From the IMG/VR virus record IMGVR_UViG_2571042390_000001: a stretch of 64,000 nucleotides of DNA; one strand, given 5' to 3'. The notes under the pieces are model-generated. The model made no database searches, was not told the DNA's origin, and was given only the letters and a program-made list of their open reading frames with translations. This DNA is from a virus. Its lineage: Duplodnaviria; Heunggongvirae; Uroviricota; Caudoviricetes. Of this stretch, positions 10,223-48,555 are shown piece by piece. How positions within the stretch are numbered: position 1 is the stretch's first letter; every line of letters starts with the position of its first letter. Both the position numbers and the translations under genes were made by a program.

Positions 10223-10235
10223 TATGATTGATAAT

Positions 10236-10520: not shown

Positions 10521-10532
10521 CGTTGAATCGAT

Positions 10533-28357: not shown

Positions 28358-28432
28358 GATGGTGTAGCTCAGCGGTAGAGCAGTTGGCTGTTAACCAACT
28401 GGTCGGTGGTTCGAATCCACCCACCATCGCCA
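28358..28432 (+). tRNA. tRNA-Asn (anticodon GTT)
   Basis: 75 nt with CCA; acceptor gatggtg/caccatc, T-arm ggtgg-ttcgaat-ccacc, anticodon loop ctGTTaa. Confidence 0.85.
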
Positions 28433-28437
28433 ATTTA

Positions 28438-28524
28438 GGGGAGTTAGTCCGTAGGGGTAGCGGGGTAGACTGTAAATCTACTGTCATTGCGACTCGGGTG
28501 GTTCGACTCCATCACTCCCCACCA
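28438..28524 (+). tRNA. tRNA-Tyr (anticodon GTA), type II with long variable arm
   Basis: 87 nt with CCA; acceptor ggggagt/actcccc, anticodon arm gtaga-ctGTAaa-tctac, variable arm gtcattgcgac, T-loop ttcgact. Confidence 0.7.
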
Positions 28525-28528
28525 AATT

Positions 28529-28604
28529 GCCGGTTTAGCTCAGTTGGTAGAGCAGTCGCTTTGTAAGCGAATGGTCAGCGGTTCGATCCCGTTAACCGGC
28601 ACCA
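28529..28604 (+). tRNA. tRNA-Thr (anticodon TGT)
   Basis: 76 nt with CCA; acceptor gccggtt/aaccggc, anticodon loop ttTGTaa, T-loop ttcgatc. Confidence 0.85.
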
Positions 28605-29058
28605 ACACAACAGGTAAGAGCATTTGTAGAGTTCGACTCTCTACCGTGGGCTTTTTCCCGCGATGCGAGCCATAAATGCTCTTACCGTTGTGATGAAGTG
28701 CAGCTCTTTGAAGCAACCAGAAGATAAGCATCTGGCTTCACAACATAAACCGCAGGAACGACCAATAAACGGTAGTCCGTATGGAGAACACCCCGTTGAG
28801 GAAGAGGTCTGGCCGGAACCGTAACCGGCACTACAACGTTGAGAACACTGGCGTAACGGGGTCATATCCCAATCTACGAATAAATGTTGCGTTGCAGCGT
28901 GACAACCAGTGTTCTCAACATTGTGGTGAATGCGCAGGCTGATGCGCGAAAGACATTGCAGCTATTGCGGAAAAGAGCTGTTCGGCGGGGCAATTAAACG
29001 CCCGTGAGAGTCTGAAATAACCGCAAGCCGGAGATCAGCACCGGTCGCCACAATAACG

Positions 29059-29145
29059 GGAGAGTAGGGAGCATGGTGCTCAAGCGGTCTTGAAAACCGT
29101 CCCATTGCGCAAGCGATGATGGTTCGATTCCATTACTCTCCGCCA
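29059..29145 (+). tRNA. tRNA-Ser (anticodon TGA), type II
   Basis: 87 nt with CCA; acceptor ggagagt/actctcc, anticodon arm gcggt-ctTGAaa-accgt, T-loop ttcgatt. Confidence 0.7.
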
Positions 29146-29436
29146 GTGCAACATTAAGGGTATTTGGCTAATTAAGCGAATGCCGGAAGCAGAACCGGAT
29201 CACCAAATGCGTACAGGCGTCATCGCCGCCCAGTCAGCCAAATGCTCTTACCATTGCGGTGAATGCGGCTAAGCGCACGCGGAACAGTTAAAACAGTAAA
29301 GGTGGTCTTTTTACTGGCGTAACGAGAATCCATAAGTGATCCGGCGTTAATTGTTAACTGGTTAACGTCACCGGGAGGCGCCCGGCACCGCAACCTAACA
29401 GCAATGGCGTTTTGTCTTAAAAGGTGGCTGCAAGTG

Positions 29437-29565
29437 ATGGATTTTTGGGCGTTTGCCGATAAAAACCCGGAGTGGACATTATTGTTTCTGCTGGTGGTTG
29501 CATACGGGGTAGAGCAAGCGGCAAAAGCCTTACGCGGTTCTGGCAAAAAGCGTAAGCGTAATTAA
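29437..29565 (+). CDS. Possible small membrane peptide (42 aa)
   Basis: RBS aaggtgg then ATG; MDFWAFADKNPEWTLLFLLVVAYGVEQAAKALRGSGKKRKRN; hydrophobic core with basic tail; sits between tRNA genes. Confidence 0.25.
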   Translation: MDFWAFADKNPEWTLLFLLVVAYGVEQAAKALRGSGKKRKRN

Positions 29566-29574
29566 CAGTAATCT

Positions 29575-29650
29575 GGCCCTTTAGCTCAGTGGTTAGAGCG
29601 GGCGACTCATAATCGCACGGTCACCGGTTCAAGTCCGGTAGGGGCCACCA
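29575..29650 (+). tRNA. tRNA with CAT anticodon (Met or lysidine-modified Ile)
   Basis: 76 nt with CCA; acceptor ggccctt/aggggcc, anticodon loop ctCATaa, T-arm accgg-ttcaagt-ccggt. Confidence 0.85.
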
Positions 29651-31178: not shown

Positions 31179-31571
31179 ATGGAACAAATCAGCAGCGCAG
31201 AAATTGCGGATATCATGATCAGGGCTGACTGCTATCTGACAGTCACTGAAATTACCACTCTCGCCAAAGAAAAATACCCTCATCTCCATGTTTCACGAGT
31301 AAGTGTAACTAACATCATTCGTCATTTTGTTCGTTCAAGCAGGGCAATCTGTGAGCTTGATGATCGTGTTTACCCACGAAAATACTGGTTGCATGGCCTG
31401 AACGGATATCAGTTCAAGGTGCGTGGGCGAACCCCTGAATATGGCAGTTTACTGGTTAAAAACTGTAGCAGGAAATCAGTCGAACAGGCGCGAAAAGAGC
31501 AACGAGAGCTGGTGGACATGGCGAATAAGCTGTGGAATGCCGCCGTTAAAAAGCGTGGTGTTGCTTTATGA
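31179..31571 (+). CDS. Hypothetical protein in the position P1 uses for the late-promoter activator Lpa
   Basis: 130 aa; operator-like motif upstream; immediately precedes pacA; homology not verified. Confidence 0.4.
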   Translation: MEQISSAEIADIMIRADCYLTVTEITTLAKEKYPHLHVSRVSVTNIIRHFVRSSRAICELDDRVYPRKYWLHGLNGYQFKVRGRTPEYGSLLVKNCSRKSVEQARKEQRELVDMANKLWNAAVKKRGVAL

Positions 31572-32932
31572 GTCTGGTTAATTGGGAGGAGCACCGCGCC
31601 CGCTTTATAGCGTTGCGTGAAGAAAAAGGGATCACTGTAAAGGAATACTGTGAGGAGCATGGCCTTAGCTTCAATACAGCCAGAAAGCATCTCAATATGA
31701 AAAAAAATGAGGTGCGGTCGCAGGTAAAGACAACAAAAAAAAGCACCAAATCACCTGAAAAAAAACGGGCGGGAAGAGCAACAAAAAAGCTGGAAGAGGG
31801 TGCAGAAAAAACAAAATTTACAGAAATTGACAATTCGCAGGGCGCAGGTTCTTTCCGAAGTATGCCGAGAAAGAAAACTTCGGATCATGAAAATAATTCA
31901 AATAATAACAATGAGATAAAAGAATCTGTCAGGAGATCATTGCGCGAAAAAATGGCGAAAATGATCCCCGAAGAAGATAAAAACGCCCCAAAAATTGAGG
32001 GATCTTCTGCAATGATCCCTGACGGTGCTGTGCAGCGTGCCACATTGCCAACTACGAATGTGGCTCGCGATATGATGAAGAACGGCGCAGAAGAACACCT
32101 GCGGTTAGCAATTCAAATGGCGCAAGAGCGCGCACTTCAGTATCAAAGCATTGTTGATCAGGAGGCCGAACGTCTACAGGCGGAAATAGACGCCTTGGGC
32201 GATAAAGAGCCAGAAGGAATGCACCCTGGGCAGCGCCTTCTCGGTCTAATCAGTGACGCGGCCTACTACATGAATGATTTTATCAGTAGGTTGGCAGCTA
32301 TATATCAGTCCGAACAAAAGCTGCGACAGGGGGATGAAAAGCTTCGTCAGAGCGCTCGCCAGCAAGCATTCAAAGAGGCTGAGGCCAGAGAAAAACTCGA
32401 ATTAGCACGCCTACAGGCCGAACAGCGTGGCAAAGAGATTGAATATCGCATTGGCGCTGACGCACGCGCAGCCAGAGTTATCGCCGCCGCTATACGTATG
32501 CGTGAGCGCGAGGAACTGGATGATATCGGTGTTGCTGAATACATCGAGCGCCAGGGTGTCAGCGTCCCGGCTATCCTCGCGGCGCGCGCGGCGAAAGCTA
32601 TCACTCTTCTCGAACCACCTGTTTCTGACGTCAATGATGTTGATGATGAACAGCTGGACAAAGAGGCAAGGGAGTTTGCAACGCTTCAGGCTAACCATCC
32701 GCAATGGCTGGCAGAGCGCCGGGCGGATGTGGCAACCATTGTTGAAGAATTGGGGTGCGGAGATTACGACCGCAATGGCGAGCGTAAAGCTGGAGAATTC
32801 GAGGCCAACGACGAAGAGCTGGATATTGACCCTTCGGCAACGGCTGAAATTTACGGTGATTATGATGCATCTGATGCAGGGTATGACGCCGGAGATGATG
32901 ATATCGCGATAGAACCGCCGGAGGATGATTAA
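31568..32932 (+). CDS. pacA: Terminase small subunit, PacA-like
   Basis: 454 aa; N-terminus MSLVNWEEHRARFIALREEKGITVKEYCEEHGLSFNTARKHL resembles my recollection of P1 PacA; acidic C-terminus; overlaps the large subunit gene. Confidence 0.65.
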   Translation: MSLVNWEEHRARFIALREEKGITVKEYCEEHGLSFNTARKHLNMKKNEVRSQVKTTKKSTKSPEKKRAGRATKKLEEGAEKTKFTEIDNSQGAGSFRSMPRKKTSDHENNSNNNNEIKESVRRSLREKMAKMIPEEDKNAPKIEGSSAMIPDGAVQRATLPTTNVARDMMKNGAEEHLRLAIQMAQERALQYQSIVDQEAERLQAEIDALGDKEPEGMHPGQRLLGLISDAAYYMNDFISRLAAIYQSEQKLRQGDEKLRQSARQQAFKEAEAREKLELARLQAEQRGKEIEYRIGADARAARVIAAAIRMREREELDDIGVAEYIERQGVSVPAILAARAAKAITLLEPPVSDVNDVDDEQLDKEAREFATLQANHPQWLAERRADVATIVEELGCGDYDRNGERKAGEFEANDEELDIDPSATAEIYGDYDASDAGYDAGDDDIAIEPPEDD

Positions 32933-34440
32933 TGGCTGGCGGGCGCAAGATTAAATGCGTCACCAGCGATCCACGCTGGCGCGATATGGTAATCAAATAC
33001 CGCTACAACTTTACCCAGGCTGTAGTCGATATTTTTGGGATGTTCCCCTCCCACCAGCAGCAGCAGATCATTCAGTCAGTGCAGGAAACGGGGAGTAGGA
33101 CGACCGTCACGTCCGGACACGGAACGGGGAAGTCGTCCCTTACCGCGATGTTGCTGTTGATTTTTATGATCCTGTTCCCCGATGCCCGTGTCATCATTGT
33201 TGCTAACAAGATAGGCCAGGTAAAAACAGGCGTATTCAAATACGTTAAACAGTATTGGGCGAATGCAGTTAAGCGTCATGGGTGGTTGCAGACCTATTTT
33301 GTCCTCTCTGACACCATGTTTTATGAGCGCTCCCGTAAGGGGATTTGGGAAGTTCTCTGCAAAGGTTATCGACTCGGCAACGAAGAAGCGCTGGCGGGGG
33401 AACACGCGGCACATTTGCTTCTAATTCTGGATGAAGCATCTGGTATATCTGATAAGGCGATCGGCGTAATGACCGGTGCTCTTACTGAAGAAGATAACCG
33501 GATGTTGATGCTATCCCAGCCAACAAGGCCAAGTGGTTATTTCTACGATTCGCACCATTCTCGAGCAAAAACCCCAGACAACCCGAAAGGGATCTGGACA
33601 GCAATTGTTCTTAACTCGGAAGAATCACCGTTCGTCACACCACAATTCATCAAGGAGAAGCTTCTGGAATATGGTGGGCGCGATTCTATTGAGTACATGG
33701 TCAAGGTGCTTGGTCAGTTCCCACGAGAAATTAACGGCTATTTGCTTGGTCGTGATGAATGCGATCGCTCTGCTCGCCGCAAGGTGTTGTTGGAGAAAAA
33801 CTGGGGATGGGTGGCAACGGCTGACGTTGGTAATGGGCGAGATAAGTCGGTCCTCAACATCTGCAAGGTATCAGGTCACAGGGATAAGCGGCGCGTTGTT
33901 AACTTTAAGGTAATGGAGATGCCTGGCACTATGGACCCATTGGCCTTTGCTGACTTCATATATAACGAATGTACGCCGGAAAAATACCCGAATATAACAA
34001 TCGCGGTTGATGCTGATGGTTTTGGTTCTGATACGTGTGCGCAGTTGGTGCGTCGTGGTGCGAACCCGGTACGTATTCGGTGGGGAAAACCCATGTTTGC
34101 GAACAAAGACAGGGAGCGATTTGTTAATCAGCGTGCCTACGCAAATATTATGGCGCGAGATGCCATAAAGTCAGGGCGTATGCGGATAGACAGTGACCCT
34201 AAAACGGCAGAGCAAGCGTCAAAAATCCCCTTTTTACTGAATGAAGAAGGGAAAATGGCGATGATGCGCAAAGAGCACATGCGGCAAAAGCTAAACATCA
34301 AATCGCCTGACCGATGGGATACCTACTGCTTCACTATGCTGGTGGACTATGTGCCTGCTAATGAAGATATTGGTGCCGAAATGGCAACTTTCCGAGATCA
34401 GGTTCTGGCGGATATCGAAATGCCGGATCTGGATATATAA
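32932..34440 (+). CDS. pacB: Terminase large subunit, PacB-like
   Basis: 502 aa; Walker A TSGHGTGKSS, Walker B LLLILDEASG, C-terminal nuclease-type region with conserved acidic residues. Confidence 0.8.
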   Translation: MAGGRKIKCVTSDPRWRDMVIKYRYNFTQAVVDIFGMFPSHQQQQIIQSVQETGSRTTVTSGHGTGKSSLTAMLLLIFMILFPDARVIIVANKIGQVKTGVFKYVKQYWANAVKRHGWLQTYFVLSDTMFYERSRKGIWEVLCKGYRLGNEEALAGEHAAHLLLILDEASGISDKAIGVMTGALTEEDNRMLMLSQPTRPSGYFYDSHHSRAKTPDNPKGIWTAIVLNSEESPFVTPQFIKEKLLEYGGRDSIEYMVKVLGQFPREINGYLLGRDECDRSARRKVLLEKNWGWVATADVGNGRDKSVLNICKVSGHRDKRRVVNFKVMEMPGTMDPLAFADFIYNECTPEKYPNITIAVDADGFGSDTCAQLVRRGANPVRIRWGKPMFANKDRERFVNQRAYANIMARDAIKSGRMRIDSDPKTAEQASKIPFLLNEEGKMAMMRKEHMRQKLNIKSPDRWDTYCFTMLVDYVPANEDIGAEMATFRDQVLADIEMPDLDI

Positions 34441-34442
34441 AG

Positions 34443-34457
34443 CCCCGCGATGCGGGG
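34443..34457. terminator. Weak hairpin between convergent genes
   Basis: ccccgc-gat-gcgggg; flanking T-tract only on the minus-strand side. Confidence 0.35.
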
Positions 34458-34467
34458 CCGGTTGTGA

Positions 34468-35505
34468 TTACCAGAGCTTCGCGGCGTACTGCGTTTGGGG
34501 GAATGTGTATCCGTAACGTTCTTCGATTGCTTTGCCGTATTTTTTACGAGCTTCATTCAGTTTTATGCCGGTCAGGTCGTCTCCAGAGGCCATCATTACG
34601 TCTAACAATTCCAGATCCATTTTATCCAGCCTTGCCATTGCTTCACGTGATGTACGTATCTTACGCTCAATGATATGGCGAATAGCCGGATCGGCATCCT
34701 CCAGCATCTTAGCGGATTTCTGCTTAAGGCTTTCATTGCGAATATCGATGTTCCTTAAGATGTACGACTTCGCAACGTAGCTTGGCTGGTGTTTTTCCAG
34801 GTCACGAACACGATATAAGTTAAAATCGCCGAGAAGGCTGCAAGGTACCGATTCGACGCCAGAATAAATTGTAATGCTCCGGCGCTCACCAACATTATTG
34901 ACAACGGGGATCGTTGTCTTCGGTAGTCTTGCGAAAACCAATGCGCCATGTGCGCCAACTCTAAAGCGAGAAAGGGCATTGCTGCCTTCGATGTTTGTTG
35001 TCAGCACAACATCTGTATATGCCTCTTTACGCGCCCGGTAGATCTCGCCTTCAGGCTCAGCTTCAAAGAAGCGCTGTTCTTCTTCAAGAGCACCTACGAT
35101 TTGAGAAAAAACCCTATTTTTCAGGCTTTTCTTTATGATTTTGTCGTATTTTTTGAGCAATTGTTCACGTGTAAATGTACGTGTTGTTGTAGCGCTTTGC
35201 ACAACAACATGCGTGCTTTGATTGGTGTCCTCAATGATGAATGGGATCGGAGAATATACAGACTCAACAATGTTCGACGCTTTGCCGTCGGCATCGCGGC
35301 ACATGTCAACGAAGGCTTTCCATTCAGCAAGACATTTTTCAGCTTCTTCTAATATGTTTTGGTCATGCGTTAATGCAACATGGCGGAATTCCTCGCCAGC
35401 ATAACTGGTATCATGGAAAACAGAGTTTGCGACCACCAGCTCTTTCCACCGTTCAGCGGTTTGCAGGAACCGTTTGTACTCTTTCTCGATCGACTTCTTA
35501 CTCAT
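34468..35505 (-). CDS. Putative immunity repressor (C1-like by position and operator overlap); function unverified
   Basis: 345 aa; lies between pacB and the lox-type site as c1 does in P1; an operator-like motif sits 17 bp upstream of its start. Confidence 0.35.
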   Translation of the reverse strand: MSKKSIEKEYKRFLQTAERWKELVVANSVFHDTSYAGEEFRHVALTHDQNILEEAEKCLAEWKAFVDMCRDADGKASNIVESVYSPIPFIIEDTNQSTHVVVQSATTTRTFTREQLLKKYDKIIKKSLKNRVFSQIVGALEEEQRFFEAEPEGEIYRARKEAYTDVVLTTNIEGSNALSRFRVGAHGALVFARLPKTTIPVVNNVGERRSITIYSGVESVPCSLLGDFNLYRVRDLEKHQPSYVAKSYILRNIDIRNESLKQKSAKMLEDADPAIRHIIERKIRTSREAMARLDKMDLELLDVMMASGDDLTGIKLNEARKKYGKAIEERYGYTFPQTQYAAKLW

Positions 35506-35520
35506 TATTCCTACTCGATT

Positions 35521-35538
35521 TAGTTTTCTAACATAAAA
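35521..35538. promoter_or_regulatory. Operator-like motif at the promoter of the putative repressor gene
   Basis: agttttctaacataaaat. Confidence 0.5.
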
Positions 35539-35715
35539 TTACTATGACAAATTTATGTCGAATAACAGAGTGAGTAAAGGATCGAACTGTGATTTTTTGT
35601 CATCAAATTTAGAAAACCAACTGTATAAACCACGCTTCGCAAATTAAAGACCATGAAGGCAACGTGTTACTGGTCAGAATCAATCTGTGATGGATTAAAA
35701 AAAATCGCCATTTTA

Positions 35716-35747
35716 TAACTTTAAATAATTGGCATTATTTAAAGTTA
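35716..35747. other. rox recombination site (Dre target): 14-bp inverted repeats around a 4-bp spacer
   Basis: TAACTTTAAATAAT-TGGC-ATTATTTAAAGTTA; reverse complement matches the rox sequence as I recall it (TAACTTTAAATAATGCCAATTATTTAAAGTTA); 150 bp upstream of the recombinase gene. Confidence 0.85.
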
Positions 35748-35899
35748 GGCTATAATTATGGGTAGATGATCAGTATTGACATCACTGAAAATACGCGCCT
35801 CGAATCAAAGGCTTGAATCTTGAAAATTAACTTATAGCTACCCTGTCATTTTTATATTTTTCGCGTAGCGTTATCTGTATATAGAGGTTAAATAGTTTC

Positions 35900-36928
35900 A
35901 TGAGTGAATTAATTATCTCTGGCAGCTCCGGTGGTTTTCTGCGCAACATTGGCAAAGAGTACCAGGAGGCCGCAGAAAACTTTATGCGGTTCATGAATGA
36001 CCAGGGGGCTTATGCGCCGAATACTCTGCGCGACCTCCGGTTGGTGTTTCATTCATGGGCGCGCTGGTGTCACGCTCGCCAGCTTGCCTGGTTTCCGATC
36101 TCACCAGAAATGGCCCGCGAGTATTTTCTTCAGCTGCATGATGCCGATCTGGCTTCGACCACCATTGATAAGCACTACGCCATGCTGAATATGCTGCTTT
36201 CGCATTGTGGCCTTCCGCCACTTTCGGATGATAAAAGTGTTTCTCTGGCTATGCGGCGCATCCGGCGCGAAGCGGCAACTGAAAAAGGCGAACGAACAGG
36301 CCAGGCTATACCGCTTCGGTGGGACGATCTGAAACTGCTCGACGTCCTGTTGTCCAGGTCAGAACGGCTGGTGGACCTGCGCAACCGGGCTTTTCTCTTT
36401 GTTGCATACAATACGCTGATGCGTATGTCGGAAATCTCGCGTATTCGTGTAGGAGATCTGGACCAAACAGGTGACACTGTCACGCTACATATTTCACACA
36501 CGAAGACAATAACGACCGCCGCCGGGCTTGATAAGGTGCTTTCCCGTCGCACTACCGCTGTGCTGAATGACTGGCTGGATGTTTCCGGGCTTCGCGAACA
36601 TCCTGACGCAGTGCTGCTCCCGCCGATACACCGTAGCAATAAGGCCAGGATCACGACAACGCCCCTTACTGCACCTGCAATGGAGAAAATATTCAGCGAC
36701 GCCTGGGTGTTGCTGAATAAAAGAGATGCTACGCCAAACAAAGGAAGATACCGGACGTGGACCGGGCATAGTGCACGCGTCGGGGCCGCTATTGATATGG
36801 CTGAAAAGCAGGTGTCTATGGTGGAGATCATGCAGGAAGGAACCTGGAAGAAACCGGAAACACTTATGCGGTATCTTCGCCGTGGCGGCGTGTCTGTGGG
36901 GGCTAATAGCCGCCTGATGGATTTGTAA
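35900..36928 (+). CDS. dre: Cre-family tyrosine recombinase (Dre-like)
   Basis: 342 aa; Cre catalytic residues conserved (ISRIRVGDL, HTKTITTAAG, GHSARVGAA, GTWKKPETLMRYL); N-terminus MSELIISGSSGGFLRNIGKEYQ matches my recollection of Dre. Confidence 0.9.
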   Translation: MSELIISGSSGGFLRNIGKEYQEAAENFMRFMNDQGAYAPNTLRDLRLVFHSWARWCHARQLAWFPISPEMAREYFLQLHDADLASTTIDKHYAMLNMLLSHCGLPPLSDDKSVSLAMRRIRREAATEKGERTGQAIPLRWDDLKLLDVLLSRSERLVDLRNRAFLFVAYNTLMRMSEISRIRVGDLDQTGDTVTLHISHTKTITTAAGLDKVLSRRTTAVLNDWLDVSGLREHPDAVLLPPIHRSNKARITTTPLTAPAMEKIFSDAWVLLNKRDATPNKGRYRTWTGHSARVGAAIDMAEKQVSMVEIMQEGTWKKPETLMRYLRRGGVSVGANSRLMDL

Positions 36929-36930
36929 AT

Positions 36931-36948
36931 TAAATTTCTAACACATCT
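36931..36948. promoter_or_regulatory. Operator-like motif
   Basis: taaatttctaacacatct, just after the dre stop. Confidence 0.45.
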
Positions 36949-37001
36949 TTTTAGATTAACGCCTTTGCTGTAAAGTACCCTCGCCTATTTAGGAGGGTGC
37001 T

Positions 37002-37346
37002 TTGCAGAGCCAAATCACGGAATCAAGACGCTTCAAGGTGGATGGTTACACCGTAACCTTCGCCGCTGGTGTTAAGAACAGTCATGCTGTTGTTGTGTTC
37101 GGCATCATGACCGGGCTTGAGGCCGTCCCTGTGTTTACCCTCGAAAAAAACTGGCGAAATCTGGAGGAAGCAGAAAGCTACGTCCGGAAAGTAACCATCA
37201 TTGCCGCCGAAAAACTCCTGGCCCACTATCAGGAAAATTATCGCACTATGGTCGAGAAGATTAATCTCGCTTTCACTCGCCCCACTACCGGCTTTATTGC
37301 ACCGAATACTAATGCAGGTCGATATCCGGCAAGGGGGCGTCGGTGA
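37002..37346 (+). CDS. Hypothetical protein
   Basis: 114 aa; TTG start 5 nt after strong RBS aggaggg. Confidence 0.5.
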   Translation: MQSQITESRRFKVDGYTVTFAAGVKNSHAVVVFGIMTGLEAVPVFTLEKNWRNLEEAESYVRKVTIIAAEKLLAHYQENYRTMVEKINLAFTRPTTGFIAPNTNAGRYPARGRR

Positions 37347-37819
37347 AAACTTATTACCCATCTCTGAATTGTTACCCGTCTTCCTATCCAGAATTATCCG
37401 GGAAGCTGTTAGCTCTATTAGCTAAAGCACCTACGGAATGGTTTAAGCCAGTCGTTATCAATCCACACTTCCTGGATTACGGATCTGTTCGCACTCGTAA
37501 CGAACTCAAAAACCTACTGGCGCATGGATTCATTCGACACCGTTCCGGTAAAGGCTATCAGTTAGCGATTGCGCCAGAAGAGGCCGTGCGGCTATTCGCA
37601 TATCGTGACAGCCAGACAAAAGCTCGGGTAATAGCTCAAATACTTCATAACGGCAGCACCTATGCCCGCCAGTTTGGCGGCGACACGTCGCAGTTCTTGC
37701 GGGCGGTGCGATCGCTGGAGGAGCAAGGAATTATTGAAAGTTCCTGTCTTCCTGTTCCTACCGTTCCACATATCAAACGTCGGGTTTACACCTTCACGCA
37801 GAGAGCTAAAAAACAATGA
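37343..37819 (+). CDS. Hypothetical protein
   Basis: 158 aa; overlapping start/stop with neighbours. Confidence 0.5.
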   Translation: MKTYYPSLNCYPSSYPELSGKLLALLAKAPTEWFKPVVINPHFLDYGSVRTRNELKNLLAHGFIRHRSGKGYQLAIAPEEAVRLFAYRDSQTKARVIAQILHNGSTYARQFGGDTSQFLRAVRSLEEQGIIESSCLPVPTVPHIKRRVYTFTQRAKKQ

Positions 37820-38310
37820 TTTACGTAAAAGTGAAACGCCTACATCCGGCAGCAAAACTTCCAGCTTATGCCACCTCCGGATCGGCGGCGATGGATTTTG
37901 AGGCTGTTGAAATAAAACCATGCGTCGATAGCAATGGTGCAATTTCCTCAAGCTGGTGGGTGTATACCGGACTGGCTATGGAGATCCCGCCCGGCTGGTG
38001 TCTGAAACTCTATCCGCGATCCGGATTGGGCTGCAAAAAACATACTCGCCTGGCTAACTGCGTAGGAATTATCGACTCCGATTATCGCGGCGAAATCATG
38101 GCAAAACTGATTACTGATCCCGGCGGGGAAGGCGTTTGTCTCAAGCCTGGAATGGCGGTCATGCAAGGCATTTTTGAGCGTGTTGAACCGGTATCGCTGG
38201 TAGAAGTTGATGAACTCGATGAAACAGAGCGAGGTGCTGGTGGCTTTGGTAGCACATCGGAAGACCGCATTGAAATCAAGCGTACACCGCTTCAGTACGA
38301 AAAGTTTTAA
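37816..38310 (+). CDS. dut: dUTPase
   Basis: dUTPase motifs YPRSGLG, GIIDSDYRGEI and RGAGGFGSTS. Confidence 0.85.
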   Translation: MIYVKVKRLHPAAKLPAYATSGSAAMDFEAVEIKPCVDSNGAISSSWWVYTGLAMEIPPGWCLKLYPRSGLGCKKHTRLANCVGIIDSDYRGEIMAKLITDPGGEGVCLKPGMAVMQGIFERVEPVSLVEVDELDETERGAGGFGSTSEDRIEIKRTPLQYEKF

Positions 38311-38324
38311 GTAGAGGAAAGATT

Positions 38325-38987
38325 ATGGCCAGCACTTTTCAGGTGTTCCCCAAATACAAAAGCCACAGCATCATTCGGGCATCGAAAATCAAAGATATTG
38401 TTATTGTCGGCGAAGCTTATGCGCCCATTTTTGGCAGTATCGAAGTCGTTGAGCCAAAAGGAATGACGCTTCGTGTTGATGGTGTGTTCTTGGAAAAATT
38501 CCGACCGCAAATAGGAGGATATCTCGTCACTGCTGAAAATGGCTATCTGGTCTATGTGCCAGAGAAAGCATTTGAAAAATGCTATAGCCGGGTTAACGAC
38601 GCCTCCGAAAATGGGGTATCGCTCAGCATTGAAGGTCACAATGGGGTGACATTCATTACAGCCAGGGACGTAACTATTTCTGCTGGCGGTATCGCTACTC
38701 TACAAGAAGAAATCGACCTTGAAGCAGCCGACTTTTCTGACGCGCTGATGTGGCTGAAGGATGGCAAGAAAGTTGCCCGACGTGGGTGGAACGGCGAAAA
38801 CCAATTCTGCTGGCTGGTTCCCGAAGGACAGTACCCGGCACGAATGGAAGCCATTAAGGGATATTTCCCCGGCGATCTCGTTCCGTATGGTGCTTATTTC
38901 GCCTTAAAAAATGCACAAGGTGTAGTTGTTCCGTGGGTTCCTTCTGTAGGCGACTTACTGGCATGTGACTGGTTTGTGGTGGAGTGA
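38325..38987 (+). CDS. Two-domain protein with C-terminal DUF2829-like domain
   Basis: 220 aa; C-terminal FSDALMWLKDGKKVARRGWNG ... VPWVPSVGDLLACDWFVVE. Confidence 0.6.
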   Translation: MASTFQVFPKYKSHSIIRASKIKDIVIVGEAYAPIFGSIEVVEPKGMTLRVDGVFLEKFRPQIGGYLVTAENGYLVYVPEKAFEKCYSRVNDASENGVSLSIEGHNGVTFITARDVTISAGGIATLQEEIDLEAADFSDALMWLKDGKKVARRGWNGENQFCWLVPEGQYPARMEAIKGYFPGDLVPYGAYFALKNAQGVVVPWVPSVGDLLACDWFVVE

Positions 38988-38993
38988 TTTAAC

Positions 38994-39761
38994 GTGGAAA
39001 ATACTAAAGCAATTCAATACCGCTTGCGTAATGGCCTGCTGGTGGCTGTTAACGCCGACATGTCACTGCCGTTTGACACGATTGAACGCACTATCATGAC
39101 GTATCTCGGCTTTAATGAAGAACTGAATGAAGAGCATGGCGTAGCTATATGGAACGATGCAGATAACGGCGCTCGTCGTCATATTACAGCCAGAGGAAAA
39201 GACTACTCTCTGGAAGAACTGTTTACCCTTGCACAGTCTTTCGAATGTGTAGCATTGGACCTGTTTAATGATCATGCTATAGCGCAACGACTTATCCGCG
39301 AGCTTGGGCTGTCCGTTACCCCAATCATCTTTAGAAATGGCAGCCTGACTGGCACATGGCGCGTAGAACGCATCTCAAACTACCTTCCATATAACCGACT
39401 GTTAAATGGAGTAATCTCCGGCGTTAATCAGCCCGTAGCGTGTGAAAATGTAAACCTGGTTGTCGCTGTTTTGGCAACCGCATGTCGTGTTATCGGTTTG
39501 GCTAAACAGGCATTTATTCATTTCCCAAATGGTGCAGAAGGTAGCGCAGAGATTATCGCGTGTGATTTCGAATTTACCTGGATGCTACGAGAATATCTGG
39601 ACCAAACAGTGTTCCGCGCCGAAGAACTGGATATGTATATCACGTCAACGATTCCTGATGATGTGCGTGCTGAAGCAATCGCTACAGCAAGGGCCAAATG
39701 CCGTGCGGCGATTGCAGAGCAGGCCAAAGAAGAAGTTAAGGAAGTGGCAGATGGCGACTAA
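38994..39761 (+). CDS. Hypothetical protein
   Basis: 255 aa from GTG; stop overlaps the next start. Confidence 0.45.
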   Translation: MENTKAIQYRLRNGLLVAVNADMSLPFDTIERTIMTYLGFNEELNEEHGVAIWNDADNGARRHITARGKDYSLEELFTLAQSFECVALDLFNDHAIAQRLIRELGLSVTPIIFRNGSLTGTWRVERISNYLPYNRLLNGVISGVNQPVACENVNLVVAVLATACRVIGLAKQAFIHFPNGAEGSAEIIACDFEFTWMLREYLDQTVFRAEELDMYITSTIPDDVRAEAIATARAKCRAAIAEQAKEEVKEVADGD

Positions 39762-40845
39762 GAGCAATATTTATAAAGATCCGCGCTGGCTGTCGCTGGT
39801 GGAGAAATATAAAGACAATTGGGTTCTGGCAGCAAAAGAATTGTTTGATATTGATTTAAGCCACCAGCAACAACAAATTGTTGAAGCTATACAGCCCAAT
39901 AATGCAAAAGCTACTGTCACCACTCCGCATGGGATCGGACGACCGCAAGTGCTTGCTGTTATTAGTACCCTTTATACGATTATGTATCCTGATTCCCGGA
40001 CAGTAATTGTTTATCCAAAATCAAATGCTTGCAAAAAAGGAATTGTTGCATATGTGTGGCAATGTTGGGAGGCATTACTGAAAAAACAACCTTTTATCAT
40101 TGAGTATTTTAAGGTCGGTGATAGCGGTCTGATGTTCAATGAATTTTGGGGAATGTGCTTTTGTAACTACCGCCTTAACTATGAAGATAGCATTGCAGGT
40201 CACTACGCCGACCATCTGTTATTCATTATTGTGGATTCCGCACATATCAGCGATCGGGCATACAGTATTGTGTGGGCAAGCATGACTAGTGGTGATTCAC
40301 GCATATTGCTCACTTCAATTCCGTCACCAGAGGAAATAGGATTTTTTTATGATTCTCATCATGGGCGTGCTTTAGCTGAAGATAATCCGAGTGGTGCCTA
40401 TAAAGCCATTAAGCTGAGTGCTGAGGATTCACCATTTATTACCCAAGAATATCTTGATCATTTTGCCGAAAGGTATGGCGGGCGAAATAGTGATGACTAC
40501 CGTCGTATGATTCTTGGTGAGTTCCCTGGTATTAGGGAGGCTGTTCTTGAATCAGATATGCCGAAGACAATGCGCTTTTCGATGCCTGATGGTAGTGAAT
40601 GGACAATACCATTACGAGTGATAGCCCGGCATCATGCGCAGCACCACGCCAAAAAACATGGCGTCACGACATTAGAATGGTTGAAATCGCACACCATTCC
40701 ACTCTTCACTGCAGATCACAATGCTATCGTTGAGTGGGCAAAAACAATTCCGTGGGAGAATGTCGCTGAATACGCCCACATGCTAAAACCGCCGAAAGAC
40801 AGGCAAGAAATTAGCTGGCTGACAGCAGAAAAAATCATTGAGTGA
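39751..40845 (+). CDS. Terminase large-subunit paralogue with degenerate ATPase motifs and no nuclease region
   Basis: About 364 aa; aligns with PacB-like N-terminus (DPRW, HQQQQI) but Walker A reads PHGIGRPQ and Walker B IIVDSA; C-terminus unrelated to PacB nuclease region. Confidence 0.6.
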   Translation: MATKSNIYKDPRWLSLVEKYKDNWVLAAKELFDIDLSHQQQQIVEAIQPNNAKATVTTPHGIGRPQVLAVISTLYTIMYPDSRTVIVYPKSNACKKGIVAYVWQCWEALLKKQPFIIEYFKVGDSGLMFNEFWGMCFCNYRLNYEDSIAGHYADHLLFIIVDSAHISDRAYSIVWASMTSGDSRILLTSIPSPEEIGFFYDSHHGRALAEDNPSGAYKAIKLSAEDSPFITQEYLDHFAERYGGRNSDDYRRMILGEFPGIREAVLESDMPKTMRFSMPDGSEWTIPLRVIARHHAQHHAKKHGVTTLEWLKSHTIPLFTADHNAIVEWAKTIPWENVAEYAHMLKPPKDRQEISWLTAEKIIE

Positions 40846-42702: not shown

Positions 42703-42758
42703 TTTGTAGTAACCAGGGGTACTGCGGGTAGCCAGAACTACAAGCTCACCAGTCATCA

Positions 42759-43556
42759 TTAATACCGGCATTCATAGCATGAGTATCTCCACTGTTCATG
42801 GTCAAAGCACCAGAATGCTTCCCTGGGCAGATTGTGTTTGTTCATTAGCGCCAGAACTTGCGTAGGCGTATTCGCGGGAATTTCTGGTAATAAAGCCTTC
42901 GCCATTTCATGAACCAACATGGCATCAATGACGCCTAGCGTATGGCCTGCCTTAATCTTTAATGCAGTTTCAAGATAGCTCCTTTCCAGAGTTGTGCTTA
43001 CTCTTGGCTTCGGCACCTCTTGTGGATGAGTATCCAGACGGTTGCCAGATTCATAGGCTACCCGCAGCCAGTGCATGAATGTTTCAGTAGACACACAACC
43101 GCAGTCCAAGTCGATTTTTTCGCGTTGTTGCCCCAGCCATTGCTCAAAATTTAACTTATTGGATGCTTCAAGAGCCTCTTCGTATTGTTTGCGCGAAATT
43201 ATTTCCGTGTATTCCTCGCGATCAAGGTTACTTATCGGAAGCCTGACCTCAAGGCAAAAATTGCGCCCACGCGGGCTTTTCGCTGGATCAGAGCCAAAAG
43301 CAAAGAAACCATATGATGGTTCACAGCAGTCCTCTCTAACCATGCGACAATCGAGCACATCATCAGGCCACCCTCCACGCTTTGGCAGCTCCTGCACCAA
43401 CAAGTCAATCAGCTTTATACTCTCACCGTCTTTGCAGGTTGCTAACGCTATTTGGGCAAGCTCCAATACCTCATCTGCCGTGTATCCAGCGCCGTGTCCA
43501 TACATTTCGATGCGTGCAATAATCTCTGATATGCGAAATTTAGTGATTTTAGTCAT
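42759..43556 (-). CDS. Hypothetical protein
   Basis: About 266 aa from ATG 43556 with RBS aagga; ATGA overlap with upstream gene. Confidence 0.5.
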   Translation of the reverse strand: MTKITKFRISEIIARIEMYGHGAGYTADEVLELAQIALATCKDGESIKLIDLLVQELPKRGGWPDDVLDCRMVREDCCEPSYGFFAFGSDPAKSPRGRNFCLEVRLPISNLDREEYTEIISRKQYEEALEASNKLNFEQWLGQQREKIDLDCGCVSTETFMHWLRVAYESGNRLDTHPQEVPKPRVSTTLERSYLETALKIKAGHTLGVIDAMLVHEMAKALLPEIPANTPTQVLALMNKHNLPREAFWCFDHEQWRYSCYECRY

Positions 43557-43762
43557 AGTTTTATTTCCTTGCATGGTTCGCCTTTACGGCATATAGCTGC
43601 ACGGTCATTTCTTACATTAACCACGGTCACCGTTCCGTCATCGCATTGAATAACGATGAAAGGGTGTTCATTCTCTTTTGTGCAATGTTGCTGTTCCCCT
43701 GCTATAACAGTGAGGGGAATTAATAAAATAATAATTACTGCGAATTTACTAAATGTTGCCAT
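43553..43762 (-). CDS. Small secreted Cys-containing protein
   Basis: 69 aa; signal peptide MATFSKFAVIIILLIPLTVIAG; four Cys in the mature part. Confidence 0.45.
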   Translation of the reverse strand: MATFSKFAVIIILLIPLTVIAGEQQHCTKENEHPFIVIQCDDGTVTVVNVRNDRAAICRKGEPCKEIKL

Positions 43763-43786
43763 AGCAATCTTTCTTTCTGTTTTTCA

Positions 43787-44080
43787 TTATGGTTGAATCC
43801 AGTTATCTTCAATAGCAATGCTCAATCTTTGTAACCATTCTGCTAATTTCAGCATTGCTTCTCTTTCGCTTAAACCACGAGGAAAATCATCAAGCGATAT
43901 TGTTGGCTTGAAGTTTCCCAAATTATCCATTTCAACGGTCAGATTTTGCTCCAGCACGGTATTCCTTACGCGGCTATTGTGCCGAAGCAAATATACTGAA
44001 CGTGATTTATTGGTTTTGTGGTCGAGCTGATATTCGGTAAGTATCATCTGGCTTCCGCCATGATTATTACCGCGCCACAT
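43787..44080 (-). CDS. Hypothetical protein
   Basis: 97 aa. Confidence 0.4.
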   Translation of the reverse strand: MWRGNNHGGSQMILTEYQLDHKTNKSRSVYLLRHNSRVRNTVLEQNLTVEMDNLGNFKPTISLDDFPRGLSEREAMLKLAEWLQRLSIAIEDNWIQP

Positions 44081-44103
44081 AATTACTCCGTGTTAATTGA
44101 AAT

Positions 44104-44406
44104 TTAGCTATTAATCTTCACTTTTATCGCGAACACCTTTACCGGTTTATCACCGAAGTGCGGATGTGTGATTGTCTTGATTTCATATCCACCATACGGA
44201 ACATCAATTCTGCGACTGGAATCGTCGCGCTTCGGATATCCCTTTGTGATAATCAGGCGGTCATACTTACGGTTAACGAGGCGCTTATTCCAGTAGTCAT
44301 TACACAGGCGATACTCTTCCGTTTTATCTCCGCGAATCATGGCATCGAAGTATTCACCTTTGACGGCAAGTTGCAGGTTAGCCATTACCTCACCTCCAGT
44401 CTCCAT
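44104..44406 (-). CDS. ASCH-like domain protein
   Basis: 100 aa; GDKTEEYR fits the ASCH GxKxxExR motif. Confidence 0.45.
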   Translation of the reverse strand: METGGEVMANLQLAVKGEYFDAMIRGDKTEEYRLCNDYWNKRLVNRKYDRLIITKGYPKRDDSSRRIDVPYGGYEIKTITHPHFGDKPVKVFAIKVKINS

Positions 44407-44645
44407 ACCGCCTGACCAATCCGGCTGGCATGGGTATCTTTGGATACTGTTCCGTCTTTAGCCAGCTCCATAAGAATTTTGCGCAAATCTGCCGAGCGCC
44501 ATTCTTCATCAGGAAATTCCTTCTCCATTGCCAACCGCAGATTCCAGGTTGCTATCGTGAATGGATATTCACCGCCGAGAGCTTTCTCTTGTAGGGCAGC
44601 ACGGGAACGCATCACCTGCAAAACCTTCTCTTTTACATCCATCAT
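44385..44645 (-). CDS. Hypothetical protein
   Basis: 86 aa; overlaps neighbours by a few bases. Confidence 0.4.
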   Translation of the reverse strand: MMDVKEKVLQVMRSRAALQEKALGGEYPFTIATWNLRLAMEKEFPDEEWRSADLRKILMELAKDGTVSKDTHASRIGQAVWRLEVR

Positions 44646-45331
44646 TACGCCTCCTTCGGCGGTTCTGGTAGCGGCATCCAGTGGGTTACTTCTTTGAGAT
44701 GCAGGTCTTCGCCATCACCGTCATCCCAAGTGGGATTGCCATCATTAAACCAGTCGCCATATACGCCGACCTGAGTGTTGGGGATGCTTGGTGGGTAGTT
44801 GTTTTTAAAGTCAGCTGCTAACACATAGTATTGTCGCTCTCCCATTTCTGGCATTCGATCACTACAGCTTATCCAACCATCCGGAGTTACCGGAGAGTTG
44901 GTTGACGTTTCCGCAATTTCCCGAAAATTATTGGTTGACGAATTCGCGTTTTTCCGAAAGTTTCCGGCATGAAGCATAGCCGCGCGGCAGGCATTCCACC
45001 CCTTCACATAACCGAACGCCATCAACTGATCACTCATGGCGGGCAGCATTGTGTGGGTCGTACTGATTTCTTCCGGCACTACCGGCGCTGGCGGGGCGAT
45101 GCGTCCAAGCAACTTATTTACCTCTTTCGCCATCGCGTCATATTTATCTAAATGGCGATTAGCTTCTAAGCAGACTCGGCGCATCTGATCTGAGTTAACT
45201 CGTTTAACTGGATCTGCTTCCAGCGATGCCAGCGCAATCCGTGCCAGTTCCATTTGTTCACCACGGGTAAGCCCGTTTTCAAGCGGATTTTTAATGAACA
45301 ATTCAATACGTTCTTTGGTAATAGTGGTCAT
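44645..45331 (-). CDS. Member of a paralogous family (MTTIT...RIALASLEA N-terminus)
   Basis: 228 aa; N-terminus homologous to 46101-46550. Confidence 0.55.
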   Translation of the reverse strand: MTTITKERIELFIKNPLENGLTRGEQMELARIALASLEADPVKRVNSDQMRRVCLEANRHLDKYDAMAKEVNKLLGRIAPPAPVVPEEISTTHTMLPAMSDQLMAFGYVKGWNACRAAMLHAGNFRKNANSSTNNFREIAETSTNSPVTPDGWISCSDRMPEMGERQYYVLAADFKNNYPPSIPNTQVGVYGDWFNDGNPTWDDGDGEDLHLKEVTHWMPLPEPPKEA

Positions 45332-45341
45332 GTGTTACTCC

Positions 45342-45605
45342 TTAACCCGCAGTGCTTTCAACTGATGAGGGGAACAAAATCTTTTCATCAAACCCTGCAT
45401 TCATATCATGAACAGCAACACACCAATCCATCGACGAACGATTATCAAGAGTCTCCATGATTTCATCCATGCGGCGCAGGTCATACAGGTAAATGCTTTT
45501 ATCGCCAATGGTGTAAAAACCAATTTTTTTCGGTGATGGACAGCGATCAAGAACGTCCTGTAATTCGCTCAACCATGCTTGTTCTTTTTTTGTCAAAGTT
45601 GCCAT
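45342..45605 (-). CDS. Hypothetical protein
   Basis: 87 aa. Confidence 0.45.
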   Translation of the reverse strand: MATLTKKEQAWLSELQDVLDRCPSPKKIGFYTIGDKSIYLYDLRRMDEIMETLDNRSSMDWCVAVHDMNAGFDEKILFPSSVESTAG

Positions 45606-45606
45606 A

Positions 45607-46098
45607 TCACTCTCCTTTGATGCGAATGCCAGTGGTACTCATTCTCCTGATTTCCCAGAGCACACGAGGAACACCACCGTTTCCGACCGGATCGCGTTTA
45701 CTCCGCAGGGCGACGCTTGATTCCGCCCAGCTTTTTCTTGGAGGAAGCTCTTTCACACGAACAAAACCAGCTGCGCGGAGAGATGCTCCTGATTCATCTG
45801 CCTGGGTGTACGTAATACAACGTTGATAACCCATAGCCTTTGCTGCCCGCCAGACAGCACCATAAAGCGCGCTGTTAGCGTTGCGTTCTCCTGTGGTACA
45901 TGTGCGATTTACTTCAAGCGTTAATCCATCGTCCAAATGTCGTGCAACAGGTCTACCGGCTGTCGCCACACCTATCAATTCTCCGGCATCATTTCTCAGA
46001 CCAATGCTGAATTTATGCCCCACTGGTGGTTTATTGTGTCGGTGATGTCTGGATATAAACGCCTTCGCAACACGAAGAGTAACCGGTGAAATTTGCAT
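45607..46098 (-). CDS. Hypothetical protein, possibly acetyltransferase-like fold
   Basis: About 164 aa from ATG 46098 preceded by AAAGGAGAG; fold assignment not verified. Confidence 0.45.
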   Translation of the reverse strand: MQISPVTLRVAKAFISRHHRHNKPPVGHKFSIGLRNDAGELIGVATAGRPVARHLDDGLTLEVNRTCTTGERNANSALYGAVWRAAKAMGYQRCITYTQADESGASLRAAGFVRVKELPPRKSWAESSVALRSKRDPVGNGGVPRVLWEIRRMSTTGIRIKGE

Positions 46099-46100
46099 TC

Positions 46101-46550
46101 TCACTCTCCTTTGATGCCAATGTTTACAGACTGGCAAGCCTCTTTGAGCACCCAGTCAACAGCGTCTTTCCATGCTCCGGTTTCGACTGGCGGATTCTCA
46201 CGCTTAACTTGTTCATAGAAACGCACGGCTTTAACCAGTCCTTCTGATGTCACCGGGACTGGCGGGGCAGTGAATAAGGCCTGAATCTCATAGCTCGGCC
46301 TGTCGTTGCAATCCTCTTTTGTCGGTACATATTTCCAGTCACCAACCCACGGCTCCCCCTGAGAGTCCGTAACGCCTTTTTTCACGTAGCGATATCGCCA
46401 CGCGACTGGCTCTGCTTCCAACGATGCCAGTGCGATACGAAACACATTGGCAAGCAGACTGCTTGAAGATTGGTTATCGTGCGCCGGGTCGCTCAGGAAA
46501 CCAGTGATGAATGATTTAATTTCCGCGTTTTCTCTGGTAATAGTGGTCAT
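46101..46550 (-). CDS. Paralogue of 44645-45331
   Basis: 149 aa; MTTITRENAEIK...RIALASLEAEPV. Confidence 0.55.
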   Translation of the reverse strand: MTTITRENAEIKSFITGFLSDPAHDNQSSSSLLANVFRIALASLEAEPVAWRYRYVKKGVTDSQGEPWVGDWKYVPTKEDCNDRPSYEIQALFTAPPVPVTSEGLVKAVRFYEQVKRENPPVETGAWKDAVDWVLKEACQSVNIGIKGE

Positions 46551-46756
46551 TTATTAATCCTCAAAACTTTATGCCCGGGCGCAAAAGCACGTGTTTTGTC
46601 TTTGCTTATTCGCCAGCCATCCTTGCGCGCCTCTTTTGCACAGCCAGCCCATGACGTACCGATATACTCACCGAAGTCTGGCGTTTGATATTTACCATTT
46701 GTACACTGGCGACAATCACAGTAGAGATGCATGGTGTAACTTGCAGCGATAGCCAC
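46547..46756 (-). CDS. Small Cys-rich protein, possible zinc ribbon
   Basis: About 70 aa from GTG after RBS aaggag; CDCRQC ... GC pattern. Confidence 0.35.
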   Translation of the reverse strand: MAIAASYTMHLYCDCRQCTNGKYQTPDFGEYIGTSWAGCAKEARKDGWRISKDKTRAFAPGHKVLRINK

Positions 46757-46757
46757 A

Positions 46758-46946
46758 TCACTCTCCTTTAGTACGCAAGTGGTTTTTCCAGCGGTTTTGC
46801 GCCGCACTGGGCTTTTTGCAACAACTGTTACCCATCACCCCGCAACACCCCGCCAACCTCACTCGTCTGTTACTAATCCTCAACCAGCGCCAGATCCCAA
46901 CACCGTTTCTGCGAGCTAACAGAATTTTTGCTTTACGGTTTTTCAT
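46758..46946 (-). CDS. Possible small basic Cys-rich protein
   Basis: 62 aa; CCGVMGNSCC; weak RBS. Confidence 0.25.
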   Translation of the reverse strand: MKNRKAKILLARRNGVGIWRWLRISNRRVRLAGCCGVMGNSCCKKPSAAQNRWKNHLRTKGE

Positions 46947-46950
46947 CGCT

Positions 46951-47616
46951 TTACTCTTCTTCCTCACGCCCAAGATATGAAAGAGATGTGACTGCTGTTG
47001 CATGGAAACCACAAACCTTGCTAAGTGCGCTTTTAAACTCTTCAAGGTCGGATTGCGATTTGATTCTGAAAGGTGACTGCGCAATCCCGGACATGGTAAT
47101 GCCACTAACATTGCTCACTGCGTTGTAGTGATATACGTGCCTATTAGCTGATTGAGTCACGCGTTCCTGTTGGCTGTTTATATTGGCATCCTGCCCTGTG
47201 GTGGTCTTCTCCAACTCTTCGATACGTTCAGCCATCGCAGCACACTCTTCAAAGTTGCTTGATGCTTTTCTCTCCCATTCGGCGCATTGTTTTCCAAGCT
47301 CTGCAATCAGCTTGTCTTTGCCTTCAAGCTCAACACGCAGCTTCCCTACCGTTAGCGCAATATCCTCGTTCTCCTGGTCGCGAGATTTGATGTATTGCTG
47401 GTTTCTTTCCAGTTCATCCAGTAATGCCAAAGCAACCTTTGGATTAAAGGCAGCAATAAATTCAGCGTTGTTTTTCAGAACGTGTTGCGCAATGGCCTGA
47501 CCACTTAGTCGGACCTTATAACCACGTGCGCCACGGTGTGGTTTATATGAGTCCCAGTCTCCCCACGTTGCTTTCTCTGCCGCCTCACGCAGTGCCTGGT
47601 AATTAATTTTGCTCAC
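46951..47616 (-). CDS. Ead/Ea22-like family protein (paralogue set)
   Basis: 221 aa; N-terminus MSKINYQALREAAEKAT and AAFNPKVALALL shared with 48552-49274. Confidence 0.55.
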   Translation of the reverse strand: MSKINYQALREAAEKATWGDWDSYKPHRGARGYKVRLSGQAIAQHVLKNNAEFIAAFNPKVALALLDELERNQQYIKSRDQENEDIALTVGKLRVELEGKDKLIAELGKQCAEWERKASSNFEECAAMAERIEELEKTTTGQDANINSQQERVTQSANRHVYHYNAVSNVSGITMSGIAQSPFRIKSQSDLEEFKSALSKVCGFHATAVTSLSYLGREEEE

Positions 47617-48148
47617 TGACTGCCTCCTTCTTAATCAGTTTACACAGGTGCTCCACAGCCACAGAGAGTGCATCCACCGCTCGTTTATCCAGACGCGGGG
47701 CCAGAGCAAGCAGTTCATTTATTGCAATCTGAATACCATGCTCCGCCGCCAGCGCCGCGCGATTGCTCTCCAGCTCTGCAATGCGCTGTTTTGCGGTATC
47801 AAGTTCAATCGATAATTTTTCCAACTGCTCTTTATGCTTCTTGTATTCCTGATATGCGTGCCAGGACTGACCTTTGCGCACACTATCAGTAATATCAGTA
47901 ATCTGTTCTGGTGTTAGAGTGGTCAGTGGCTGTGCTGGGAAAATCAGCACTTTCCCGGAATCCCAATCAAAACCAGCGTGAATTGACTGAACCTCAACTG
48001 AGGGTGTTGAACCAATGCTGCCAGGCGAATGAACAACGATCGTTACATCCATATCGCGACGATGGCTGTGGTTGTTGGACAAAATACGATTCAACAAAAT
48101 ACGATTCACCAACTCAGAAAATTTGGAGAATTTCATGCGGAGCCTCAA
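47603..48148 (-). CDS. Hypothetical coiled-coil protein
   Basis: 181 aa; contains an in-frame 15-bp tandem duplication near the 5' end. Confidence 0.45.
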   Translation of the reverse strand: MRLRMKFSKFSELVNRILLNRILSNNHSHRRDMDVTIVVHSPGSIGSTPSVEVQSIHAGFDWDSGKVLIFPAQPLTTLTPEQITDITDSVRKGQSWHAYQEYKKHKEQLEKLSIELDTAKQRIAELESNRAALAAEHGIQIAINELLALAPRLDKRAVDALSVAVEHLCKLIKKEAVSEQN

Positions 48149-48555
48149 TATGCAAAATAGACCGTTGCCACGCCGTTATAGTGATCAAACGATACGGCGT
48201 TTACTTCATAACTGGCCGGGAGCTTCGAGCCAAGAACGTATCCGGGCCACGTTTTCCATGGAATTTCTCTATTCTCACTACCCCCATATACCGTACATCC
48301 AAGTGAACCTACAGCTTCATTAGAACGCGTGCCGCACGTTATGAATCCCAGATTTTGCTTACTGCTCTTAATGGTGATTGAGTGAACGCTGGCTGATGCA
48401 TTAGCAGCACGCTGTGCCTGTTGGTTTGCGATATTCGCAGAGTTCGCAGCAGCTACAGCAGCCGTAGTCGCGGCGGTAGAGGCTACAATAGCTGCTGAAG
48501 CATGCACTTGTTGGATATTCACCAACAATGCCGCGATAAAAATCATCTTCTTCAC
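48145..48555 (-). CDS. Secreted protein
   Basis: 136 aa; signal peptide MKKMIFIAALLVNIQQVHA; Ala/Asn-rich region; two Cys. Confidence 0.5.
   Translation of the reverse strand: MKKMIFIAALLVNIQQVHASAAIVASTAATTAAVAAANSANIANQQAQRAANASASVHSITIKSSKQNLGFITCGTRSNEAVGSLGCTVYGGSENREIPWKTWPGYVLGSKLPASYEVNAVSFDHYNGVATVYFAY

Follow-up and report, generated by a model that had tools for sequence, protein, structure and literature searches.

A Dre/rox-type recombination cassette in a mosaic D6-like plasmid-prophage

A short inverted repeat stands upstream of a gene for a Cre-like recombinase in the window (the whole 64,000-nucleotide stretch of viral DNA analysed here), raising the question of which site-specific recombination system the two form and in what kind of element they reside. 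The sequence-only reading took them for a rox site and a Dre-like recombinase, forming a system analogous to, yet distinct from, Cre/loxP of P1. The cassette consists of the following features.

35716..35747, + strand: rox, 32-bp Dre recombination site, orientation as in the D6 GenBank record
35716-35729, 35730-35733 and 35734-35747: parts of rox, namely the 14-bp left arm, the asymmetric spacer TGGC and the 14-bp right arm
35884..35887, + strand: probable Shine-Dalgarno sequence GAGG, 12 nt upstream of the dre ATG, read from the sequence
35900..36928, + strand: dre, Cre-family tyrosine recombinase of 342 aa, 340/342 identical to AAV84949.1

The site reads TAACTTTAAATAATTGGCATTATTTAAAGTTA on the + strand, and its arms, TAACTTTAAATAAT and ATTATTTAAAGTTA, are perfect 14-bp inverted repeats flanking the 4-bp TGGC. 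It is the reverse complement of TAACTTTAAATAATGCCAATTATTTAAAGTTA, the form of rox usual in engineering papers (PMC4777119), as stated in the sequence-only reading. Comparison with the 'rox' misc_recomb feature of AY753669 (phage D6 immC) showed identity over all 32 bp and both boundary bases. The native D6 rox with its boundary bases, printed in PMC3082901 as (A)TAACTTTAAATAAT TGGC ATTATTTAAAGTTA(G), corresponds to positions 35715-35748 of the window, and the published site and the one found here show no material difference. The interval first delimited for the cassette was exact, starting on the first base of rox and ending on the last base of the dre stop codon. Within the 64-kb window, rox is matched only once at up to three mismatches (0 matches in 100 shuffles), and no further rox half-site was found there at up to one mismatch.

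The dre product matches the Pfam family Phage_integrase (E=2.8e-16), with a SAM-like N-terminal domain of Pfam below threshold. A phmmer search of PDB chains aligned residues 22-341 with the chains of Cre crystal structures (E=5e-68), showing full-length homology to Cre that takes in both the N-terminal and the catalytic domains. The Cre catalytic positions 173, 176, 201, 289, 292, 315 and 324 are occupied by R175, E178, K202, H290, R293, W316 and Y325, in agreement with the numbering of the Dre catalytic residues in PMC4777119. The overall identity to P1 Cre (from NC_005856) is only 40.2% (136/338), which bears out the earlier description of a protein of 342 residues that retains the complete Cre catalytic set (7/7) yet diverges clearly from P1 Cre. 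Three Cre residues implicated in target specificity, K43, R259 and G263 (PMC4957104), are replaced by R44, P259 and K263. The protein differs from D6 Dre (AAV84949.1) by two substitutions, F240L and S342L, and the start codon agrees with that of the D6 annotation. NCBIfam holds no specific model of the Dre or Cre type, and the dre product matches just XerC/XerD in that collection, far below the cutoff. Megablast of 35500-37000 against the GenBank phages returned D6 as the sole match (96.3% identity), with the matched features annotated as 'dre: tyrosine recombinase' and 'region of crossover (rox) site for Dre recombinase'.

The best solved-structure matches of the protein are all Cre, and its gene lies beside c1 as in P1, as would be expected if the locus were P1 Cre/loxP itself or a close Cre allele. 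However, the recombinase is much closer to Dre (99.4% identity) than to Cre (40.2%), which was the comparison proposed at the outset for deciding between the two. The architecture of the site is 14-4-14, exactly as in rox, rather than the 13-8-13 of loxP, and no loxP was found at up to eight mismatches anywhere in the 64-kb window. Thus, the alignments refute an assignment to Cre, the probability of which is practically nil. The locus is very probably a natural allele of D6 Dre/rox, and the element that carries it a mosaic plasmid-prophage of Enterobacteriaceae, D6-like and of the P1 family.

The genes around the cassette are those of phage D6, as follows.

31179-31571, + strand: lpa, late activator (AY753669 annotation, constant offset)
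31568-32932, + strand: pacA, packaging (AY753669 annotation, constant offset)
32932-34440, + strand: pacB, packaging (AY753669 annotation, constant offset)
34468..35505, - strand: c1, D6-type prophage repressor of 345 aa, 345/345 identical to D6 C1 (AAV84948.1)
37002-37346, + strand: orf117 homologue (D6 annotation, ORF list, PHROG matches)
37343-37819, + strand: orf116 homologue (D6 annotation, ORF list, PHROG matches)
37816-38310, + strand: dut (D6 annotation, ORF list, PHROG matches)

The order lpa-pacA-pacB-c1-rox-dre-orf-orf-dut matches that of D6. The repressor gene is divergent from dre, with 210 bp between the c1 start codon and rox and 152 bp between rox and the dre ATG, and this c1-rox-dre layout is identical in D6 and 35 relatives. 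The proposal that the pair lies between the repressor and downstream genes, as lox-cre does in P1, agrees with the observed arrangement, in which c1 is located on one side and homologues of orf2, orf3 and dut on the other. The repressor itself is distant from P1 C1 (57/268 identical in a local alignment) and scores 25 bits against the NCBIfam model phage_rep_C1, far below the cutoff. A cluster of P1-type pac hexamers (TGATCA/G) is absent from pacA, with three hexamers in 2 kb compared with at least seven in P1. Such a cluster would have marked pac ~4 kb upstream of rox; as it is, gene order would place rox within the terminal redundancy.

Local blastn comparison with the complete D6 genome showed that 47.5 of the 64 kb are collinear at 90-98% identity and that the collinearity continues across the rox junction (coordinate 1/91159 of D6). 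In D6 numbering, the window covers ~67,000-91,159 followed by 1-31,600, and the D6 repA/stb region (45.8-59.7 kb), which belongs to the module for plasmid replication and partition (repA, stbAB/parA), lies outside it. About a dozen segments, amounting to ~16 kb, have no counterpart in D6. This partial collinearity indicates a mosaic D6-like plasmid-prophage rather than D6 itself. The collinear genome, the identical C1 and the pacA and pacB genes as in D6 support the earlier placement of the element in the D6-like branch of P1-family plasmid-prophages, refined here to a mosaic relative of D6. Plasmid prophages of this D6-like type form a recognised group (PMC6799933).

The identity to D6 is not uniform around the cassette. 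Along the pacB-c1 backbone, it amounts to 99.7% (6 mismatches, 33807-35606); it falls sharply at position 35607 to 92-97% through rox and dre, and returns to about 99% after ~37000. The diverged patch (35607-37000) is 1.4 kb long, differs from D6 by 3-7% at the DNA level and covers exactly the recombination cassette. Judged by nucleotide identity, the rox-dre cassette is a different allele in a near-identical D6-type backbone. Dre-mediated exchange at rox was considered as the source of this mosaicism and rejected, since the breakpoint at ~35607 is ~110 bp to the left of rox. The position of this breakpoint and the extension of the patch to ~37000 point to allelic replacement by ordinary homologous recombination.

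Several other parts of the window differ from D6. The segments 1-2346, 2347-2919, 8244-10966 and 42703-49902 have no counterpart there; a tail-fibre assembly gene (1149-1763, - strand) lies in a segment missing from D6, and a Cin-type serine invertase (2347-2919) has just 69% DNA identity to D6 cin. A ddrB-ParB-domain protein of 907 aa (7216-9939) is about twice the length of D6 ddrB. The small lambdoid-type genes at 42.7-49.9 kb (DUF551, Ead/Ea22-like) are closer to those of RCS47 and P1 relatives than to D6. Five tRNA genes are present (Asn, Tyr, Thr, Ser-UGA and Met; 28358-29650, + strand), compared with three in D6. The D6 tRNAs (MF356679, 7145-7850) are annotated on the + strand, whereas ARAGORN places them on the - strand, in the orientation of the genes next to them. 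Just downstream of dut, a 220-aa protein (38325-38987, + strand) has a C-terminal Tad2-like (Thoeris anti-defence 2) domain (PF11195, E=1.6e-22). Its D6 counterpart is the shorter orf114, which matches the C-terminal part, and window positions 38328-38664 are absent from D6. Further downstream, a second PacB-like paralogue of the terminase ATPase domain (39745-40845, + strand; 366 aa from the ATG at 39745) is 38% identical over 258 aa to the element's own PacB. In this paralogue the Walker A motif GHGTGKS is changed to PHGIGRP and the Walker B motif LDE to IVD, and the nuclease half is lacking. It is absent from D6, its closest phage matches are just 52% identical (MH422554, vB_EcoM-813R1), and it belongs to phrog_5902, a family of unknown function.

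The distribution of the cassette bears on whether the recombinase could be a conventional phage integrase that inserts the element at a chromosomal attachment site, the palindrome beside it being incidental. The cassette matches 143 PLSDB plasmids (117 of Escherichia, 16 of Salmonella, 9 of Shigella and 1 of Enterobacter), most of which are ~90 kb in size and non-mobilizable. The window as such has no close match in PLSDB, the best reaching ~96% identity over 86% of an 18-kb query. Among 5,426 complete E. coli genomes, the cassette is present in 123; the occurrence of Dre/rox in E. coli genomes has already been reported (PMC4957104). The 90%-identity cluster around the protein holds 845 sequences, nearly all labelled merely 'integrase'. 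Such public names ('integrase', 'tyrosine-type recombinase/integrase') and the chromosomal location of 3 of the 126 places in the complete E. coli genomes are consistent with an integrase. However, the other 123 places are on plasmids of ~90 kb, and D6 is itself a plasmid prophage. In addition, the palindrome beside the gene has the symmetry of a lox-type site and the exact sequence of the rox validated by experiment, and the protein lacks an arm-binding domain and aligns with Cre over its full length. A conventional integrase is thus very improbable, and the assignment to Dre/rox is retained.

The natural variation of the site was followed in 36 related IMG/VR loci (L007-L042), with protein identities from 100% down to 55%. 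The rox variants were read ~150-185 bp upstream of the recombinase start, at locus positions ~1317-1348. The upstream region is included in 35 of these loci, each of which has the site at 151-153 bp from the ATG. Wild-type rox is found in 20 of the 35, and the left-arm variant A9G in 11, including L036, in which the spacer is also altered. Altered spacers occur in three loci (GGGG in L027, TGGAG in L036 and TAGC in L039). The Dre-like protein of L039 is just 70% identical, and both rox arms are kept. The 26 records with 60-80% identity in the search of E. coli genomes may belong to the class of L039. A pox-like site is present in the remaining two loci (L041 and L042), the proteins of which are 55-56% identical to that of the window. 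Among 29 distinct natural sequences of the region between c1 and dre, the 32-mer with the least variation is rox, in which 5 of the 32 columns are variable (2 of 28 in the arms) compared with 255 of 362 outside, and nucleotide diversity (pi) is 0.024 in rox vs. 0.21 outside.

The region between rox and dre also contains a promoter-like sequence that overlaps the site.

35729..35756, + strand: predicted sigma-70 promoter aimed at dre, 11/12 consensus match

The predicted -35 element (TTGGCA, 35729-35734) sits on the rox spacer, the 16-bp spacing is formed by the remaining rox right arm and GGC, and the predicted -10 element (TATAAT, 35751-35756) begins 3 bp past rox. It is the sole promoter match of at least 11/12 in the 64-kb window. 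However, the chance expectation is ~1.3 (1.26) such matches per window of this size on both strands, so the count of one is not statistically unusual and the case for the promoter is made by its position and by the conservation of the -10 element. Every Dre-type relative, to as little as 70% protein identity, has an unchanged TATAAT at precisely 3 bp from rox, and the bases on either side of it vary. The Panto-like loci have no TATAAT 3 bp after the site, and the -35 element degrades in the natural spacer variants GGGG, TAGC and TGGAG. Neither D6 record annotates a promoter overlapping rox. Such a promoter is not mentioned in the secondary literature searched, and it may already be described in the primary D6 papers. 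From these sequence features, it is possible, at somewhat less than an even chance, that rox doubles as part of the dre promoter and that Dre bound to rox would shut off dre transcription. In that case, rox would carry the -35 element and the spacer of the promoter that serves dre, and Dre bound at the site would occlude this promoter. The consequence would be negative autoregulation, keeping the recombinase at a low level.

Two further blocks of the leader between rox and dre are conserved. The block AGTATTGACA (35774-35783) is kept in relatives down to 70% protein identity and also in the Panto-like loci, and the block CCTGTCATTTTTATATTTTTCGCGTAGCG (35834-35865) is kept in relatives down to 70% protein identity. 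A perfect TTGACA is present within AGTATTGACA (35776-35781). A second promoter there was considered and rejected, as inspection by eye revealed no acceptable -10 element at 16-18 bp. A LexA box (CTG-N10-CAG) was likewise not found by eye in the intergenic region, and no convincing promoter or operator assignment was found for either block.

The overlap of rox with a strong promoter-like site is one of two observations that would fit a decaying relic, in which the F240L/S342L allele is inactive and rox is kept merely as a carrier of the promoter or operator. The other is the absence of F240L from the 35 IMG/VR relatives, two of which carry S342L. However, F240L is a conservative change at a residue that is Phe in Cre as well, and the open reading frame is intact with all catalytic residues in place. 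Nucleotide comparison with D6 dre showed 31 differences in 1029 nt, 28 of which fall in codons that still specify the same amino acid, a sign of purifying selection. A protein identical to that of the window is found on 168 public contigs from E. coli and Salmonella, for example BBL99634.1 (ETEC O6:H16 strain B2C), and also from Salmonella Typhi. Moreover, the conservation of rox involves both arms and extends beyond the part under the promoter. A relic is therefore highly unlikely, and the locus is best read as an intact Dre/rox allele.

D6 Dre efficiently recombines pairs of rox sites in E. coli and mammalian cells without cross-reaction on loxP (PMC3082901, PMC4957104, PMC4777119). The D6 protein of these experiments and that of the window differ at two residues. 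By analogy with Cre, two Dre monomers would bind the two 14-bp arms of each rox, and two rox sites would synapse in a tetramer. Tyr325 would then cleave the DNA and exchange strands across the asymmetric centre via a Holliday intermediate, without accessory proteins. The biology of P1 and the shared gene order suggest two roles for the reaction. It may circularise the terminally redundant virion DNA after injection, and it may resolve dimers of the plasmid-prophage, thereby allowing partition of a low-copy plasmid.

The Dre/rox of this locus is an already known and widely used system, located where it is usually found in a phage-plasmid lineage that is itself common, and nothing in it is new in kind. 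Rox and dre serve as a landmark for a P1-family phage-plasmid of the D6 type and mark the conventional zero point of its map. The locus is also of small practical value, in that the F240L/S342L allele and the natural rox variants make up a field-tested panel for Dre/rox engineers. Its members are the arm variant A9G, the spacers GGGG, TAGC and TGGAG, and the Dre-like protein of L039, 70% identical and with the rox arms retained. Should a promoter really be embedded in rox, this would account for how the phage limits the expression of Dre, and rox sites would carry a -35-like element, calling for caution in bacterial constructs.

The closest known system is the Dre/rox of phage D6 itself (Sauer and McDermott 2004, as cited in PMC3082901; GenBank AY753669 and MF356679). 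The two share an identical rox, equal spacings on both sides of it and the neighbours c1, orf117, orf116 and dut, and they differ in the two substitutions of the recombinase, the diverged 1.4-kb patch and the mosaic nature of the surrounding element. Cre/loxP of P1 resembles the present system in protein family, fold, catalytic residues, location downstream of pacAB-c1, the presence of one inverted-repeat site directly before the recombinase gene, and the presumed roles in cyclisation and dimer resolution. The P1 order lpa-pacA-pacB-c1-(coi, imcB, imcA)-lox-(cra)-cre is paralleled here, but without coi, imcB and imcA between c1 and the site and without cra between the site and the recombinase gene. 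The layout is accordingly more compact, with the 210 and 152 bp on the two sides of rox corresponding to 701 and 418 bp in P1. The two sites differ in architecture, as noted above. The annotated P1 promoters, P4cre and P2coi, lie on either side of lox, and none is annotated as embedded in the site, whereas the best promoter match here overlaps rox. Panto/pox of Pantoea sp. aB is another Cre-family system; its site arms deviate from those of rox at a single position, and cross-reaction with Dre/rox is reported (PMC4957104). Loci L041 and L042, with the site TAACTTTATATAAT-GTCA-GTTATATAAAGTTA, appear by sequence resemblance to be of the Panto/pox type. In comparison with the window, about half of the residues of this type differ, and its spacer has another sequence and, with respect to the gene, the opposite orientation.
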